A DNA stretch of 64,000 nucleotides from an uncultured delta proteobacterium (GTDB lineage Bacteria; Desulfobacterota; Desulfobacteria; Desulfobacterales; JAFDCJ01): positions 224,001 to 288,000 of the forward strand of contig CAVYNY010000009.1 of NCBI GenBank assembly GCA_963769935.1, written 5' to 3'. Made by a program: the position numbers and the translations under genes. Below are positions 8,432 through 63,812 of the stretch, piece by piece (the stretch's first letter is position 1; each line of letters starts with the position of its first letter). The notes under the pieces are model-generated. The model did no database searches and was not told the origin of the DNA. It was given only the letters and a program-made list of their open reading frames with translations.

Positions 8432-10249
8432 CTATTTCCCCCCGAAGGCATCCTCCGAGATATCCACGGCGGCACTGTTGGTGGCCAGAATGGCATCCAT
8501 CTTGCCCAGTGTCACCGGCAGAATACAACTGGTAAAGAACTCGGTGCTTTTCAGCTGGCCCTCATAAAATGCCGCATCTTTTTTCTTGGCACCTTCATCC
8601 AGCCTTGCGGCGGCAATGGTGGCGCGCCACAGCAGCAGCCAGGCCAGGATCACATCCCCAGAGACCTCCATGAACGGATAGGCGTGCGCAAATGCGGCCA
8701 TTACCTTGGGCGACATAGCGGTTTTGCCCAGGTGCAGGGCAACTTCACCCAGTTTATTCAAGGCTGCCTCCACCTTGCCGGCAAAATCTTCAACCCGGGC
8801 ATTGGTCTTGCCGGCAGCGATGGTTTTCTGGATTTCACCCATCAGATCCATGATCGGTTTGCCCTTGTTCATACCGAGTTTGCGGCCCAGAAGATCCATA
8901 GCCTGGATGCCGTTGGTTCCCTCGTAAATGGGAGTGATCCGGCAGTCCCGCAGCAGCTGTTCCATGGGATATTCCTTGATATAGCCGTACCCGCCGAAAA
9001 TCTGAACACCCAGGTTGCAGACATCGAAGGCCCGGTCGGACACATAGCCTTTGGCCACCGGTATCAACAGATCGATGATACCCTGATATTTGGCTTTTTC
9101 CTCTTCGCTGTCCGTAACATGCAATTTATCTTCGCACATGCCGACATAATAGATCAGGCTGCGCATGCCTTCCACGTAAGATTTCATCGTCAGCAGCATC
9201 CGCCGGACATCCGGGTGCTGAATGATCGGAACCGAAGGCGCGCTTTTATCCATCATATTTAACAGATGCCGTCCCTGCACCCGCTGTCTGGCATAATTAA
9301 TCGCATGCATGTAGGCCGCACTGGCACAGGCAAAGGCCTGGATACCCACCAGCAGACGCGCCTCGTTCATCATCAGAAACATGGATCGCATCCCTTTGTT
9401 TTCTTCCCCCAGGAGCAGCCCCCGGCATTTCCCTTTGCTGCCCAGAGACATTGCGCAGGTGGCGTTGCCGTGAATTCCCATTTTCTCCTCGACTCCCGTG
9501 CAGACCACGTCGTTGGGCTCTCCCAGACTCCCGTCGTCGTTGACCCGGATCTTGGGCACGATAAACAGGGATATGCCCGAAGTGCCCTGCGGTGCACCTT
9601 CAATGCGCGCCAGTACCGGATGAATAATGTTTTCGGCCAGATCATGCTCGCCGGAGGAAATAAAAATCTTGCTGCCCGTGATCGAATAGCTCCCGTCATC
9701 ATTTTTAACCGCACTGGTCGTCAACGCCCCTACATCGGATCCCGCCTCAGGTTCGGTCAGCAGCATGGTGCCGGTCCATTCTCCGGTATACATTTTCTTC
9801 AAAAACAGCGCCTTCTGCGCCTCTGTTCCAAAAGCCTCGACCAGTTTGCCGGCCCCATGCGTCAACCCCGCATACATCATAAAAGCAAAATTCGCCCCGT
9901 TCATGTAGTCACTGGCCGCCAGGGCGACGGCCCGCGGCATACCCTGTCCGCCCCATTGCGGATCTTCGATCATGGCCAGCCATTCGCCTTCTTTGAACAG
10001 TTCCCAGGCCTTGTGGAAGGACTCGGGAACCGTCACGCTTCCGTTTTCAAAGTGCGCGCCCTCCCGGTCCCCTTCCGCCTGCGTGGGCAAAATCTCTTTG
10101 ACAGCCAGGTTGCGGGCTTCGGATACGATGAGATCTACGGTTTTTCTGTTGAATTCGGCAAACCTGTCATGCTTGCTCAATTCCTCGACCTGCAGCTGGT
10201 CGTAGAGGACAAAGTCAACATCCCTGCGATCTGCAATTTGCTGTGCCAT
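8432..10249 (-). CDS. Acyl-CoA dehydrogenase (long, ~600 aa type)
   Basis: GTMLLTEPEAGSDVG, ITGSKIFIS, EEKMGIHGNATC, QIFGGYGY and IYEGTNGIQAMDLLGRK motifs. Confidence 0.96.
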   Translation of the reverse strand: MAQQIADRRDVDFVLYDQLQVEELSKHDRFAEFNRKTVDLIVSEARNLAVKEILPTQAEGDREGAHFENGSVTVPESFHKAWELFKEGEWLAMIEDPQWGGQGMPRAVALAASDYMNGANFAFMMYAGLTHGAGKLVEAFGTEAQKALFLKKMYTGEWTGTMLLTEPEAGSDVGALTTSAVKNDDGSYSITGSKIFISSGEHDLAENIIHPVLARIEGAPQGTSGISLFIVPKIRVNDDGSLGEPNDVVCTGVEEKMGIHGNATCAMSLGSKGKCRGLLLGEENKGMRSMFLMMNEARLLVGIQAFACASAAYMHAINYARQRVQGRHLLNMMDKSAPSVPIIQHPDVRRMLLTMKSYVEGMRSLIYYVGMCEDKLHVTDSEEEKAKYQGIIDLLIPVAKGYVSDRAFDVCNLGVQIFGGYGYIKEYPMEQLLRDCRITPIYEGTNGIQAMDLLGRKLGMNKGKPIMDLMGEIQKTIAAGKTNARVEDFAGKVEAALNKLGEVALHLGKTAMSPKVMAAFAHAYPFMEVSGDVILAWLLLWRATIAAARLDEGAKKKDAAFYEGQLKSTEFFTSCILPVTLGKMDAILATNSAAVDISEDAFGGK

Positions 10250-12279: not shown

Positions 12280-14589
12280 TCAAGGCGCATTTGGCTGGGC
12301 CAATTTTTTTTCGATATAATTCAACATATCGCGTCCGATGGGATTGCCGGGGTGTTTTTCAATCATCCGTTCGGCGAAATCCCTGGCTTTAATCAGTTTT
12401 CCGCTTTTCAGATAGTGGTCGGCCACGGCATACAGATAGTCCAGGTTGTCGGGTTCAATTTCGAGGGCTCCCAGCAGAGCGGCCTCGGCCTCCATATCCC
12501 GCTTCATTTGCTGCAGCAATAAACCTAAATTGTAGCGCACCCGCGCCCGGTCCGGCATGCCTTTGGCTGCAATCTCAAGATGCCCGGCCGCTTCAGCATA
12601 CTTTTTCTTTTCCGCCAGCAGCAGTCCCAGTGAATATTGCACCTCGTAAAGCTCAGGATGCGCATCGACCACCTCGCGCAGCAAGGCCTCCGTTTCATCG
12701 CTGCGGCCCAATTGGTTGAACAGCATGGCCAGATTGACCTTGGCCGGGTAAAATTGACTGTCGATGCGGATGGCACCCCTAAAACTGTCAATCGCTTTTT
12801 CCGGCTGGCCCAAATTGGTGTAAATATTACCCAGGTTGTACCTGGCAAACGCAAAATCGGCCGAATATTCCATAGCTTCCTGATATTCCAGCAAGGCTGC
12901 TTGATAGCGCTTTTTCTGACTGCCGTCCAGCTGCGGGTCCTTTATTTCCGTCATACGCCGGGCGGCTTCAATGCGAACCGCTTTGACGGGATCGTACAGC
13001 ATGGCGGCCAGCAAGGCGGTCTGTTTATTTAAATCAGCAGCATTCAGCTGATCAATCGCCGTGCGTCGAATCAGGGCTTCATCGTCCGCCAGAGCCGGCT
13101 CATAGGCCTGGATGCTGTCTTTAGCCGGGTAGGAGCCCAGCAGCGACAGTGCCGTCGCCCGCACGATCACCGGATACAAGGGATCACCCGCCAGTCGAAT
13201 GAGGTTCTGAGAAGCGGCCGGCAGGTGCCGGCGGCCGGCATCGATAATCGTGCCGTAGTGGCCGGGGCGGCCGGGACCGTACCATTTGGTGAAATAATCA
13301 TCGGCCCATTGCAAGCTCTTCTCCTGATGGCAACGATTGCAGGCGTTGGGCACGCCGAGTTTCAGGCTCAGATCGGGACGCGGTATGCGAAGGCTGTGAT
13401 CCGGCCGGTAATCGATTCCCATATAGATGCGCCCCGGCATATGGCACTGGGCACACTCGGCGCCGGTACCCACGTCAAACAGCACCCGGCCGTCGGCGGA
13501 TTTGAGCGGCTCGCCTTTTTCGCCTTTTTTCTTGTGGAAATGATGGGCCCGGGCGTCATAGACGGCCGCCCGATGACACTGCAAACACAAGGCGTTGCCC
13601 GTCTTGACCGTCCTGACACTATGCACATCATGGCAGTCGCTGCAGCGCACCCCGCGCGCGTACATTTTACTCTGGGTAAACGAGCCGTAGACATAAACCT
13701 CCTCCTGGATCTGGCCGTCGGGATAATAGAGGTCTTCCTCGAGCAGGCTCGGCAGCATCGTATCCATCAAATCCGGCTCGGCATGGGTGTAATCTCCCAG
13801 TATGGCCCGCCGGGCATGGCAGGGGGCACACAGTTCCACCAGTTTGTGCGAGTTAATGCCGGATGTTTTCACCATTAGCCGGTAATTTTCAGCGGCGGGC
13901 CGCGCCATATCGGGCAATTCGGCCCACTTCACGTGATCCGATCCCGGGCCATGGCAGGCCTCGCAGCTGACATCGATTTCCGACCAGGTGGTGCGATATG
14001 AATCCGTATTGAGATCGTAATTTTTTTTCAAATTGGTGGAATGGCATTCGGCGCACATTCCGTTCCAATTCTGTCCGGCATTGGTCCAGTAAAGCCAGTC
14101 GGCAGGATCGATCGGGGCGTCCGGATACAGATGATACCATTTTTTTTCTCTGACATCCCAGGCAATGGGCAGGCATTGCAATCTCCCGCCGGGAAACGGG
14201 ATCAGGTACTGCTGCAAGGGATACACACCGAAGGTATACTTGACTTCATAATCATCCATTTTCCCGTCCGCTCCCTGGGTATGGACAAAAAATCGGCCGT
14301 CCTTGCGGTAAAATCGCGACGTAACCCCGAAGCGCTCGAAGACCGCGTTGTCAAAATTTCCCAGCACGGTTTGATCATTGGCCTCATCCATGGCCAGATC
14401 ATGCGGAGACCCCCGCCACTTGTCGAATTCACTTTTATGACATTCGGCACATTTTTGCCCGCCGACAAAGGCCGCCGGAGGCGCCGGCGCAGCGGGCGCC
14501 CGGAAGTATTGCTGCTTGAGCACATATGCCGGAATGGAGAGCACAATAACAAGCGTTGCAATGATTCCGGTTATTTTCCAGTTTCGCAT
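12280..14589 (-). CDS. Membrane-anchored octaheme c-type cytochrome with HEAT-like and TPR repeats
   Basis: Eight CxxCH motifs (CAECH x2, CEACH, CAPCH, CSDCH, CLQCH, CAQCH, CNRCH); N-terminal TM; C-terminal TPRs (ARYNLGN, VQYSLGLL, VRYNLGLL). Confidence 0.9.
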   Translation of the reverse strand: MRNWKITGIIATLVIVLSIPAYVLKQQYFRAPAAPAPPAAFVGGQKCAECHKSEFDKWRGSPHDLAMDEANDQTVLGNFDNAVFERFGVTSRFYRKDGRFFVHTQGADGKMDDYEVKYTFGVYPLQQYLIPFPGGRLQCLPIAWDVREKKWYHLYPDAPIDPADWLYWTNAGQNWNGMCAECHSTNLKKNYDLNTDSYRTTWSEIDVSCEACHGPGSDHVKWAELPDMARPAAENYRLMVKTSGINSHKLVELCAPCHARRAILGDYTHAEPDLMDTMLPSLLEEDLYYPDGQIQEEVYVYGSFTQSKMYARGVRCSDCHDVHSVRTVKTGNALCLQCHRAAVYDARAHHFHKKKGEKGEPLKSADGRVLFDVGTGAECAQCHMPGRIYMGIDYRPDHSLRIPRPDLSLKLGVPNACNRCHQEKSLQWADDYFTKWYGPGRPGHYGTIIDAGRRHLPAASQNLIRLAGDPLYPVIVRATALSLLGSYPAKDSIQAYEPALADDEALIRRTAIDQLNAADLNKQTALLAAMLYDPVKAVRIEAARRMTEIKDPQLDGSQKKRYQAALLEYQEAMEYSADFAFARYNLGNIYTNLGQPEKAIDSFRGAIRIDSQFYPAKVNLAMLFNQLGRSDETEALLREVVDAHPELYEVQYSLGLLLAEKKKYAEAAGHLEIAAKGMPDRARVRYNLGLLLQQMKRDMEAEAALLGALEIEPDNLDYLYAVADHYLKSGKLIKARDFAERMIEKHPGNPIGRDMLNYIEKKLAQPNAP

Positions 14590-15113
14590 CAGGCCTTCTT
14601 CACAGGATACACGACTTGCTCGGTTTTGAATTCACTGCGTTTTATTGTTCGACTCGTATCTACTTTCACAATGCCGTTTTCTATGACCAGTGGATGTATA
14701 TCCAATGGCCGCGGCGCAGGCGGGCTGATGACATTGCCGGTGATATCAAAGGCCGAAGCATGACAGGGACAGGCGAATCTCTTTTCTCGCTCCACCCAGG
14801 GGACGGTGCAGCCGAGATGGGTGCATTTGCGCGACAAGGCCAGAAATCCGCCGTCTGCCAGCCGCGCAAGATAAAACCGGCCGCGCACAAAAGCGGTCAC
14901 CGAATCAGGCACAAATGTATTGACGGCGCCGGCGGTAACGACGGCATCGGCGTTTTCCGGGTGCGCTTGGGGTTTGCCCGGCCGCAAAAAAGCAAATGCG
15001 ACGGCAATGAACTCGGCCAGCGCCACAAAACCCAGGGCGAACCAGAGTTTGGTTAGAAAACTGCGGCGGGAGGAACCTGCCGGTGTGGCTTTCTCTTTGA
15101 GTTGATTTGGCAT
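14589..15113 (-). CDS. Rieske [2Fe-2S] subunit of a Rieske/cytochrome b complex
   Basis: Tat motif SRRSFL plus TM; CTHLGC and CPCHAS boxes; PAPRPL. Confidence 0.95.
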   Translation of the reverse strand: MPNQLKEKATPAGSSRRSFLTKLWFALGFVALAEFIAVAFAFLRPGKPQAHPENADAVVTAGAVNTFVPDSVTAFVRGRFYLARLADGGFLALSRKCTHLGCTVPWVEREKRFACPCHASAFDITGNVISPPAPRPLDIHPLVIENGIVKVDTSRTIKRSEFKTEQVVYPVKKA

Positions 15114-15180
15114 GAGAATATCCTAAACAACTTCTTGGTGGTTTCCTACTATATCAAAACAATAAAACATCTTCGAGAAA

Positions 15181-15210
15181 GCCGGAGTGCTGGAGTATTG
15201 GAGTATTGGA
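15181..15210. repeat. Downstream arm of the inverted 8-bp tandem repeat around the four-helix-bundle gene
   Basis: GCCGGAGTGCTGGAGTATTGGAGTATTGGA abuts the stop codon; its reverse complement matches 15713-15742 at 26/30. Confidence 0.9.
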
Positions 15211-15645
15211 TTAATCATTTCCATATAGAGCATTGCTTTCCTTTATGACTAGGTGGTCTGTCCAGTCTCCCTTGGCCCTTTTGAGTTCTAAGCTTTCGAC
15301 TAATTTAAGCAGGCCATTTTCAAGTTTATATGCCAGAGTGTCAAGAGTTCCGAATTCTTCTTCAGTGATCTGCCCTGACGCTCTGTAGGCAAATAGCCCG
15401 GATACCGATTCCCCGAGAGATCCGAGGGCTATATTAAGAAAATTCAGATACTCATGAATAGATCGCCTGCAATACCCTTCTGCAATGTTCCGGTGAACGG
15501 AGTCACTTGATGCTATTGCCTGTCCTGCGACTCGCTTTAATTCGTAAGGAAATTTTCTGAAGATACGAAATGTTTGCTGATAATATTCAATTGCATCATT
15601 CCATACCCTCAATTTCTGGTATCCACGATTTTTATTCTTTCGCAT
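15211..15645 (-). CDS. Four helix bundle protein (23S rRNA intervening-sequence protein family)
   Basis: YQKLRVWNDA, Q...SSDSVHRNIAEGY.R and YLNFLNIALGSLGE motifs; more AT-rich than its neighbours. Confidence 0.92.
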   Translation of the reverse strand: MRKNKNRGYQKLRVWNDAIEYYQQTFRIFRKFPYELKRVAGQAIASSDSVHRNIAEGYCRRSIHEYLNFLNIALGSLGESVSGLFAYRASGQITEEEFGTLDTLAYKLENGLLKLVESLELKRAKGDWTDHLVIKESNALYGND

Positions 15646-15688
15646 TCTTAAATACCCTGTAATCTATGCAGTTCTTACTCATTTTCTT

Positions 15689-15742
15689 TCCATTACTCCA
15701 CTACTCCACTACTCCATTACTCCAATACTCCACTAATCCGGC
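15689..15742. repeat. Upstream arm of the inverted 8-bp tandem repeat: (TCCAHTAM)x6 + TCCGGC
   Basis: tccattac tccactac tccactac tccattac tccaatac tccactaa tccggc read directly. Confidence 0.9.
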
Positions 15743-15801
15743 AACGTTATCCAACTTATCTAAACCGGAGTGCGTTGAGTATTATAGACCAACCTCCACT
15801 A

Positions 15802-17187
15802 CTACCACGGCCACACCAGCGCCATCTCCTTTCCCCGGAACCAGATCCCGGTTACGGTCAAAATTAAAAATGCCGTCAACAATAAAACAAAGACTGCCTG
15901 GACGGCTTCGTTGTTGTTGGCGTGAAATCCCTGCTTCATCAGCAGGTAAAATCCGATGATTCCCACCAGGATAAGGACCGCCGGCAGCAGGCCGTTGCTG
16001 ATTGTGGAGGAAATCGCCGGCATCCAGGCCGCAAAATCAATCCCAAATTCATCTGCCACGATTCCGGGCGGTGTAATGATCAGGGCAATTGCCGCAGCGA
16101 TGACGGCCATTTTCCGGCCCCGGTAGGAAGCAAACCAGACGCCGGCGGTATCGGCATCATAGCGCAGATACGGCAGAAAAAATAACAGCCCGATGATGGT
16201 AACCGGTATGACAAAGACCGCGAACAGGGGGTGGAAATGCAGCAGCAGCTCCTGTAAGCCGGCAAAATACCAGGGCGCTTTGGTGGGATTGGGGCTGAGA
16301 CCCGGATTGGCCTTGGCTTCCAAAGGAGCATTAAACAAGATCGATAAAAGCATCATCAGCGCGATCAGCAGTGCGGCCACGACCAGTTCACGTACAACAA
16401 GGTTCGGAATGGTAGCTGCCGACTCCCCCCGGTCCTGCCCATCTCCGTCGGGCTTCCGCGGGATCACCAATCCGCGGGCTTTGCGTATCCGCCAGAAATG
16501 AAACGGCATGAGGCAAATGAGACCGGCGGGAATAATGGCGGTGTGGATGGCAAAAAAGATCGACAGGGTGGTCGGGCCGATATCGGATCCGCCCCGGACC
16601 AGCCTTTGCAGCCCCAAACCGATTCCGGGAATGTATTCCAGCATGCCGGTGCAGATGGTGACGGCCCAGAATGCAAGCTGATCCCACGGGAGCAAATAGC
16701 CGGTGAAGTTCGACCCCAAGACGAGAAGGAACAGCGCCAGTCCGATGACCCAGTTAAACTGCCTGGGTGAGTGAAATGCTCCGCTGAAAAATACCCGTAT
16801 AAAGTGGAGCAGAACGACCAGCAGCAGCGCATTGGCGCTCCAGTGATGCAGGTTGCGGATCAACTGACCGAAATTGACCGCGTTCTGCAGGTGGACAATG
16901 GATTCATAGGCCCGGTCCGGAACCGGCTGGTAGGCAAATTTGAGCATCAGGCCCGTAGCGAAAAGCATCACCACCAGCACCAGCGCCATCCCGCCGAGCC
17001 CCCAGGTAAGGGTGAATTTTAACGTGCGCCGGGGAACCGTTTGCGGGCGAAAATGCAGCAGCAGGCTGTTAAACAGCTGGCGGTATCGCTGCCGATCGAG
17101 GACACCCTGGTAAGTGCCGGGCAAGATGGAATACCGGATTCGCTGAAAAAGATTGAGCCGGTCCGATGTTACACTTTGAAGCGGCAT
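15802..17187 (-). CDS. Cytochrome b/b6 with fused subunit-IV-like region
   Basis: WGLGG, IRNLHHWSAN, LHFIRVF, FTGYLLPWDQLAFWA, FFAIHT...PFHF and KAPWYF motifs. Confidence 0.93.
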   Translation of the reverse strand: MPLQSVTSDRLNLFQRIRYSILPGTYQGVLDRQRYRQLFNSLLLHFRPQTVPRRTLKFTLTWGLGGMALVLVVMLFATGLMLKFAYQPVPDRAYESIVHLQNAVNFGQLIRNLHHWSANALLLVVLLHFIRVFFSGAFHSPRQFNWVIGLALFLLVLGSNFTGYLLPWDQLAFWAVTICTGMLEYIPGIGLGLQRLVRGGSDIGPTTLSIFFAIHTAIIPAGLICLMPFHFWRIRKARGLVIPRKPDGDGQDRGESAATIPNLVVRELVVAALLIALMMLLSILFNAPLEAKANPGLSPNPTKAPWYFAGLQELLLHFHPLFAVFVIPVTIIGLLFFLPYLRYDADTAGVWFASYRGRKMAVIAAAIALIITPPGIVADEFGIDFAAWMPAISSTISNGLLPAVLILVGIIGFYLLMKQGFHANNNEAVQAVFVLLLTAFLILTVTGIWFRGKEMALVWPW

Positions 17188-17282: not shown

Positions 17283-17503
17283 CGAAATATCGAACGCGCT
17301 GCTCAGGCGCCCCCGCGGCACCAGCGCTTGCGCCGCGGGGCCCGAAATATTCTCAGATACCCTATCGCCGTTTTCCAGTCAACAGATGCTTTTTCTGATT
17401 TTCAGACCCAATATTCCATTATTCCAGCATTCCATTATTCCATCGAAATCTCAGACCCCCCCCCGCTATAACTTCAAAACCGGGTTCTCTGGTCTGGAAT
17501 TCT

Positions 17504-63604: not shown

Positions 63605-63812
63605 TCAGTTAACCCGTCGAGCCCGTTCTCCCGTTGAGCCAGTAAGCCTGTTGGTCCGTTAGCCAGTTAATCCGCTGGCCCGCGATAAACCGGATAGGCG
63701 ACTTATCGGCAAACAGGTTGACCGGTTAACCGGCCGACCGGTTCACGGGCTAACGGGCAAACCGGACAACCGGTTCACGGGCTAACCGGCAAACCGGTCA
63801 ACCGATCAACCG
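63605..63812. repeat. 8-bp-period degenerate tandem repeat (AACCGGNN) with inverted arms
   Basis: About 12 units such as AACCGGAC/AACCGGTT/AACCGGCA at 63710-63812; inverse-type units at 63605-63680. Confidence 0.85.

Follow-up and report, generated by a model that had tools for sequence, protein, structure and literature searches.

To our knowledge, the widespread four-helix-bundle (FHB) family PF05635 has been given no function since its discovery in intervening sequences (IVSs) of ribosomal RNA (rRNA), and the abundant short-period intergenic arrays with units of 7-9 bases are unexplained as well. The terminal stem of the 23S IVS of Coxiella burnetii is 28 bp long and contains tandem heptamers, at the first of which it is cut by RNase III, and the FHB homologue Xcc0516 is a homopentameric ring (PMC4990558). 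For heptamer arrays, the excerpt of PMC4679880 speculates that a protein that binds the repeats could be the mobile element, that of PMC4692102 gives no general link to mobile elements, and neither mentions 'S23' or 'helix bundle'. The FHB family is named in the excerpts of PMC8700078 and bioRxiv 10.1101/2024.02.27.582315, which make no link to repeat arms. Searches of the open-licence main texts of PMC and bioRxiv turned up neither repeat-armed FHB genes in mRNA operons nor FHB genes in IS91 elements. Here we analyzed a stretch of 64,000 nucleotides from an uncultured delta proteobacterium (the window), in which an FHB gene enclosed by inverted repeat arms lies between the genes for cytochrome b and a Rieske protein. 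We found that this cassette of gene and arms entered a junction whose out-of-genus orthologues are tight, was kept under purifying selection in three genomes and was cut down between the arms in two.

The cytochrome b-Rieske junction and its cassette

Sixty relatives were searched for the junction. A close Rieske orthologue was present in 17 of them (L002-L018), and cytochrome b adjoined it in 16, all except L018. At these 16 orthologous junctions the FHB gene was intact in two, internally deleted in two and missing in 12. The intact copies (L002, L003) lay between the same arms as in the window, and the same arms enclosed the deleted copies (L004, L011), the deletion in L004 being 291 nt long and in frame. 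Inspection by eye of the 12 gene-less junctions showed a solitary arm built of the window cassette's unit in L012, arrays of other units in five (L006, L007, L008, L013, L014) and no arrays in six. Since five relatives hold arrays of other units there, the junction is a repeated landing spot. In the out-of-genus orthologues L016 and L017 the gap between cytochrome b and Rieske was 4 and 41 nt.

The dN/dS of the window gene was 0.10 against L002 and 0.06 against L003, at dS of 0.59 and 0.94, respectively, indicating purifying selection in the three genomes that hold the gene intact. From the junction survey and this selection it follows that the window FHB gene is an old insertion, retained in some lineages and decayed in others, and no fixed member of the operon. 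The objection that it might be a fixed member, raised in a first-pass annotation made from the sequence alone, therefore fails, as empty junctions exist.

The features of the cassette are listed in Table 1. The scores of the protein were above the cut-offs for both profiles, 68.2 bits for PF05635 (cut-off 33.8) and 71.5 bits for TIGR02436 (cut-off 24). A fold model built from a 25-row alignment (predicted local distance difference test, pLDDT, 86.3) matched Xcc0516 (2GSC; E 3.5e-6, TM 0.93 by target, rmsd 1.1), which the sequence also matched with E 1.7e-9, and BT_0352 (2RLD; E 5e-4). The match to Avd (4DWL) was weaker (E 0.067, TM 0.84 by target), and Avd chains in reverse transcriptase (RT) complexes of diversity-generating retroelements (DGRs) were matched as well. 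With scores over the cut-offs and a four-helix fold, the window protein is a member of the PF05635 / TIGR02436 family. The GC content of its gene was 0.416 compared to 0.555-0.562 in three neighbour genes, so that the AT-richer gene of 144 codons noticed in the first pass was confirmed by reading frame, profiles and composition alike.

The six upstream units and the three complementary units at the stop codon described earlier were also recovered, as arrays of period 8 (15689-15739 with 6.4 copies, and 15191-15210). As inverted arms, 15181-15213 and 15710-15742 were 85% complementary; their outer 30 nt paired at 26 of 30 positions, closed by GCCGGA/TCCGGC as first reported, and the stem around the ORF held 26.4 expected pairs in the predicted ensemble of 15100-15830 (731 nt). 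The inverted-arm score was 40, compared to 33.9 at the 99th percentile of 1014 control open reading frames (ORFs) of the genome. The whole fold of 15100-15810 was modestly better than that of shuffled sequences (z -1.89, with 1 of 20 shuffles as good). No Rfam family reached its gathering score in 14500-16500.

The small ORF-less version of the arms that had been proposed next to the cassette did not hold up. This stretch overlaps the cytochrome b stop, 84 of 200 shuffles folded as well, and by eye the pair was not preserved at the equivalent junction in L002-L004. A competing hairpin between this stretch and the upstream arm was also tried and rejected, with only 0.7 expected pairs.

Table 1. 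Features of the cassette and its host genes (positions in the window)
Feature	Positions	Strand	Evidence
FHB gene, 144 aa, PF05635 / TIGR02436	15211..15645	-	ORF list, profiles, fold model, dN/dS
Upstream arm (G-rich on mRNA): six GGAGTNNT-type octamers, outermost degenerate, closing GCCGGA	15689..15742	-	repeat scan, folding
Downstream arm (C-rich on mRNA): three complementary octamers from the stop codon on, closing TCCGGC	15181..15213	-	repeat scan, folding
Degenerate repeat-like stretch; no significant hairpin	15765..15804	.	z -0.12
Cytochrome b, 461 aa, upstream host gene	15802..17187	-	PF00033, PF13631
Rieske 2Fe-2S protein, 174 aa, downstream host gene	14589..15113	-	PF00355

Of the host genes, cytochrome b scored 282.5 bits with an ExtP-like model, below the cut-off of 290, and the third neighbour encodes a multiheme cytochrome c with tetratricopeptide repeats. 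The Rieske and multiheme cytochrome genes overlap in the window, whereas gaps of about 375-510 nt were seen at that junction in L002, L003 and L006, possibly representing further inserts.

Repeat arms in the FHB family and gene-less arrays

A profile search of the window's genome gave seven FHB matches over the cut-off. By eye, six of these paralogs had inverted arms, each of a different unit; the seventh was a broken copy at a contig end with same-direction arrays. The family was found in all 23 genomes of the genus (171 matches, of which 150 were listed). For the arm test we used 110 genus loci (30 plus 80 in rank order), 25 of 27 further loci (two being duplicates), L002, L003 and the seven loci of the window's own genome. 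A profile match was obtained at 140 of 143 loci. Once five of six identical copies from genome G007 had been dropped, there remained 111 loci at which the gene was full-length and 200 nt of flanking sequence was available. The control ORFs were crude calls and included the FHB genes themselves. As kin are not independent, the counts are descriptive and do not amount to a test.

The inverted-arm score exceeded the 95th percentile of the controls at 93 of the 111 loci and the 99th percentile at 82, with a median of 42 compared to 18. Direct-repeat scores differed little from background, with 13 loci over the 95th percentile, and arms taken from different FHB loci seldom paired (95th percentile 26). 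The enrichment of inverted short-period arms beside FHB paralogs that the first-pass annotation had proposed as a check was thus observed, within the genome and beyond it. In a quick tree, each FHB protein clade had its own unit family. The window subfamily occupied 17 unrelated site clusters among 25 loci, in records labelled as Thermodesulfobacteriota, Nitrospinia, Marinimicrobia, Victivallales, Pontiellaceae, Bacteroidia and others. Genes on both sides shared the direction of the FHB gene at 77 of 94 loci, compared to 48-54% for background ORFs.

Several further observations were made during this survey. In a clade of six FHB genes (L077, L105, L145, L148, L167, L169), five were followed directly by a small Cys-rich ORF, and upstream of three lay an ORF for a secreted helix-hairpin-helix protein, which we take to be ComEA-like. 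The highest inverted-flank score among the control ORFs (87) belonged to a 118-aa gene (G000:C8:93846-94203) with its own CCCTCCC-type arms, presumably related to DUF559/Vsr-like nucleases. The sole GxxExxY gene over the cut-off (G000:C8:188559-188909) was flanked by long direct repeats and had no inverted arms. Within the window, the self-complementary unit AACCGGTT, which resembles the unit beside the paralog on contig C11, formed a long array at 63707-63812.

The genome contained 949 arrays, nearly all of period 7, 8 or 9; on contig C10 there were 62, compared to none in a codon-block shuffle. The unit was identical to an FHB-adjacent unit in 377 of 908 arrays, compared to a mean of 51 (maximum 103) for letter-shuffled units, and the contrast was weaker with one mismatch allowed (674 vs 468 arrays). 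The window's unit, here GGAGT, formed 86 arrays in the genome, none of them within a long ORF, and none in the codon-block shuffle. Automatic pairing by consensus unit (45 inverted, 35 direct) missed known pairs, so counts per family were used instead. The GGAGT arrays formed 28 G-then-C pairs and no C-then-G pair, with a spacing of mostly 14-56 nt, and for four units the G form predominated after stop codons (41:5, 45:5, 14:0 and 12:3).

A gene-less GGAGT subset shared a common spacer at 10 sites, nine of them with both arms, and a CGAGAC-type tail was found at 13 of 57 gene-less GGAGT elements compared to 3 of 276 control windows. The shared spacer and tail indicate that this subset has multiplied as a unit. 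No autonomous GGAGT-armed parent was found among six pattern matches in four of the genus' 23 genomes, and the GGAGT miniature did not truly resemble either FHB genes or the IS91-type element described below (best E 0.65).

An IS91-family element carrying a close FHB relative

The six equal-scoring FHB matches in G007 all belonged to a single element, present in six copies at unrelated sites. Its order is left end, arm of GGAATNNT units, FHB gene, transposase, complementary arm and right end. The transposase matched PF14319 (Zn_Tnp_IS91) and PF04986 (Y2_Tnp), with 87.2, 60.7 and 72 bits on the G007 pieces, and an intact ORF of 415 aa was present in L182, L184, L196, L197 and L201. In metagenomes, relatives of this transposase were encoded on 107 stretches, of which the best 80 were used. 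Among these, the FHB gene lay directly upstream of the transposase in 42 of 48 close relatives with at least 450 nt upstream; the six without it were mostly N-terminally truncated transposase matches, and none of five distant transposases had an FHB gene. The intact element is about 2.1-2.2 kb long and consists of an FHB gene of 135-136 aa, 5 nt, the transposase gene and an 82-aa Cys-bearing ORF. Its FHB protein is 52-55% identical to that of the window, and in 19 of 36 element spans the FHB ORF satisfied a strict pattern for intactness.

All 36 left insertion flanks were distinct. The left end began with GAAC in 31 elements, CAAG in four and GCTC in one, GAAC and CAAG being the reverse complements of the IS91-family words GTTC and CTTG (PMC13181058). 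By eye, no target duplication was seen in 15 complete copies. The classical CTTG/GTTC target word was not found beside oriIS, as none of 49 right flanks began with GAAC or CAAG; the right flanks were A/T-rich and TWAATTA-like. Judged by its Zn_Tnp_IS91 and Y2_Tnp domains, its unlike ends and the terminal palindrome with GTTC/CTTG at terIS, the FHB-bearing element belongs to the IS91 family.

The left-end motif occurred in 14 of the 23 genus genomes, and its reversed control in none. Thirty of the 74 matches were taken as left-end loci, and seven of these were end-arm-arm-end miniatures in which the right end followed after 67-322 nt with no intact gene. In the window's own genome, a remnant on contig C13 (about 346,370-346,640) retains the left end, an arm, an internally deleted FHB gene and the start of the transposase, and a gene-less miniature lies on contig C24 (about 9,750-9,990). 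The element looks active and sheds gene-less arm pairs. The suggestion of the first-pass annotation that gene-less arm pairs are empty relatives of armed genes therefore finds support for the related GGAAT unit, is only suggested for GGAGT, and fails for the pair once proposed beside the cassette.

The G007 copies (L090-L095) carried palindromic inserts within the FHB gene and the transposase, two of them an IS110-family gene (PF01548, PF02371), and L051 and L054 a different insert within the FHB gene. Upstream of cytochrome b in the window, 17408-17443 is a GGAAT-unit array, and IS91-type end motifs were not found in the sequence read there. The 11-base word TCGCTTCGCTC, part of the left end, occurred at 26 sites of the genome, and many heptamer arm pairs without a gene enclosed it. 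In its complement lies GCGAAGC, which forms a mini-hairpin of high stability in single-stranded DNA. On plasmids only distant IS91 transposases were found (<60% identity), and on viral contigs neither a relative of the FHB protein nor an IS91-type end motif. Eleven matches to PF01797 (Y1 transposase, REP/RAYT type) were present in the window's genome, none near the cassette.

Proposed mechanism, alternatives and known systems

The inserted FHB gene is bracketed by inverted arrays of the octamer that belongs to its clade, and we propose that the FHB protein likely binds the repeat units one at a time. As a ring (the solved homologue is a pentamer), the protein might clamp both arms on single-stranded nucleic acid and so mark the ends of the unit. 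Free cassettes would then move as DNA with a transposase supplied in trans, most likely of the HUH (single-strand) kind. The many empty arm pairs would result from internal deletion and further movement, and if RNase III cuts the mRNA stem at all, the host would tolerate this as a side effect. Of the parts, that the window unit is an inserted cassette is highly probable, binding of the protein to its cognate unit is somewhat favoured, and DNA-level movement with a borrowed motor, taken alone, is plausible and rather doubtful. For the whole chain, passenger cassette, protein binding its own repeats and movement with a borrowed transposase, we would put the chance a little short of even.

Several results weigh against this proposal. 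Neither end motif of the IS91-type element was found at the window cassette within 4 (left) or 4 (right) mismatches in 14900-16100, and the transposase of that element lay within 1 kb downstream at only 1 of 110 FHB loci. No intermediate with the order end-arm-FHB-arm-end was seen in the 30 left-end loci. An FHB gene was found at none of 10 distant IS91 transposase loci and at none of 15 from the phylum, the sixteenth phylum locus (L266) being a deleted copy of the FHB-bearing element itself. Thirty of 52 genus IS91 loci were inspected; the six FHB-bearing ones were all in the FHB-element clade, and the 23 other-clade or unmatched ones had no FHB gene. The clade of six FHB genes noted above for its neighbouring ORFs had no arms. 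No single residue tracked the unit, the best columns changing in three of five sister transitions in a weak test (about 63 rows phased by hand, 7-31 fixed differences per transition), and the link between unit and clade may thus be one of mere co-inheritance. The same-direction bias is equally compatible with an RNA step. No closely related pair of filled and empty genomes turned up from which to place the exact cassette ends or any target duplication.

A different reading, which we regard as unlikely, is that the cassette is an mRNA-level IVS: RNase III would cut a selected stem, freeing the FHB message and leaving the cytochrome b and Rieske messages usable, and spread would occur by gene transfer and recombination between arrays. 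It draws on the Coxiella 23S IVS, whose heptamer stem is cut by RNase III according to the excerpt of PMC4990558, and by this analogy cutting of the window stem is possible. The arm stem dominates the predicted ensemble with a duplex energy of -43.0 kcal/mol, the upstream neighbour shares the FHB gene's direction at 98 of 102 loci, G-form arrays follow stop codons, and promoter and terminator scans found nothing above chance inside the cassette. A selected RNA stem should favour G-U over A-C mismatches on the mRNA strand and match variable letters between the arms. However, there was no G-U excess, with 103 G-U vs 89 A-C mismatches (p 0.35) and 30 vs 28 of 81 loci, the antisense duplex was about equal in energy (-43.7 kcal/mol), and at 18 loci only 8 of 63 variable dinucleotides matched in either register, where the null is 13-15%. 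Each unit kept six fixed letters and had two variable letters unmatched between the arms, a pattern that suits protein binding sites. Because of the absent G-U bias and the unmatched variable letters, unit-by-unit protein recognition is favoured over a selected RNA stem. In the IS91-type element, moreover, the arms flank the transposase at a distance of about 2 kb from each other, and an mRNA-level IVS leaves the clade-specific units unexplained. Such processing may also be a tolerance step within the mechanism we propose. The first-pass idea that arms and ORF form a unit either processed from the mRNA or mobilised thus stands in that they were gained, deleted and lost as a unit; mRNA excision is so far unsupported.

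Movement through RNA, with an Avd-like protein recruiting an RT encoded elsewhere and the looped-out transcript being copied and inserted behind stop codons, is improbable in our view. The fold matches to Avd, both by itself and as chains in DGR RT complexes, the treatment of PF05635 and Avd as homologous (excerpt of PMC10053308), the strong direction bias and 10 RT matches in the genome speak for it. Against it, no RT was found within 90 kb of any of the seven paralogs of this genome, the nearest match on a contig with an FHB gene being more than 90 kb away, and the sole motor found to accompany the subfamily is a DNA transposase, with no wobble bias of an RNA strand. The earlier statement that no transposase or RT is visible holds locally. 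A locus repeat scan found no long direct repeat pair in 15050-15900, although no dedicated search for template and variable repeats was made.

Returning to DNA-level movement, the window cassette might itself be a worn-down IS91-type element that lost transposase and ends, which we consider hardly probable. The 52-55% identity, the near-identical unit (GGAGT vs GGAAT) and the CGAGAC-type tails of gene-less elements agree with such descent, and so does the careful tree in part. There the IS91-borne genes formed one clade (98/100), sister to the window clade (87/86), and a basal position of their branch within the subfamily was not rejected (AU p 0.348). Against descent, all 12 outgroup rows, on long branches, and the basal L050 and L052 were free-standing cassettes, placing the single change of state on the IS91 branch. 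There was also no FHB-only intermediate in the 30 loci and no autonomous GGAGT element among the six pattern matches in the genus. No Y2 HUH transposase ORF lay between or beside the window arms; the two PF04986 matches of the genome were on other contigs, and only 2-3 of its 91 GGAAT arrays had an adjoining end motif. Capture of a cassette by the transposon seems the simpler reading, because one change of state on the IS91 branch suffices, and the likelier one, because the window cassette lacks the ends of the element and the element's transposase accompanies only one of the FHB loci. It is notable that, on capture, the second arm sits at the transposon's far end and is still built of the FHB clade's unit. 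A host regulator of the respiratory operon, or an ordinary AT-rich gene among abundant repeats, is largely refuted, for despite purifying selection at the site in three genomes and some 950 arrays genome-wide, the gene is missing or broken at 14 of 16 junctions, the subfamily stands beside unrelated genes at 17 sites, the unit tracks the protein clade rather than the host site, and inverted arms are rare at control ORFs.

A broader and more tentative reading, which we offer as speculative, is that FHB proteins act as ring-shaped adaptors with sequence specificity, each for a 7-9-base unit of its own, which join single-stranded element ends and serve rolling-circle transposases; the IS91-type element would be the natural autonomous form, and intergenic arrays would be footprints of cassettes. 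This could give one cause for the PF05635 family, its rRNA IVSs and the bacterial excess of heptamer repeats. PF05635 genes and short-period arrays are tied together clade by clade, and an intact multi-copy transposon offers a natural system with gene, arms and transposase together, which makes the question testable. Were the protein to bind its own unit and alter transposon excision or termination as IS91 Orf121 does, it would be a small, programmable-looking repeat reader, and cassettes of this kind would provide a new route for genes into operons without breaking them.

Compared with known systems, heptamer arrays with inverted pairs and ORF-bearing rRNA IVSs have been described, whereas neither the cassette in mRNA operons nor the FHB-bearing IS91 element turned up in the open-licence literature of PMC and bioRxiv. 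The related element resembles IS91 in its Y2 HUH transposase with zinc domain, unlike ends, lack of a visible target duplication, palindrome with GTTC/CTTG at the left end and small gene directly upstream of tnpA (excerpt of PMC13181058). It differs from IS91 in the tandem-repeat arms inside both ends and the absence of a CTTG/GTTC target beside the right end, and orf121 of IS91 overlaps tnpA (same excerpt), whereas the FHB gene ends 5 nt before it. The window cassette, with neither a transposase nor the terIS/oriIS-like ends of that element, is no IS91 member. It is no DGR either, as an RT is not beside the gene and none lies within 90 kb, although its protein shares the four-helix fold with Avd (4DWL; excerpt of PMC10053308), Xcc0516 (2GSC) and BT_0352 (2RLD).

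The 23S rRNA IVSs of C. burnetii and Leptospira (S23p; excerpt of PMC4990558) carry the same family, with an ORF looped by terminal inverted repeats and subject to decay; the 5' side of the Coxiella IVS consists of tandem heptamers of variable number, much like the window arms. The window cassette shares the long stem around an ORF with them and differs in lying in a protein-coding operon, between cytochrome b and Rieske, in its octamer unit, and in having seven paralogs and hundreds of gene-less arrays in the genome. These arrays in turn resemble the heptamer arrays of Xanthomonas and Nostoc (GGGAATC; excerpt of PMC4692102) and of Beggiatoaceae (TAACTGA; excerpt of PMC4679880), which are likewise of short period and intergenic, with the G form just after stop codons and frequent convergent inverted pairs.

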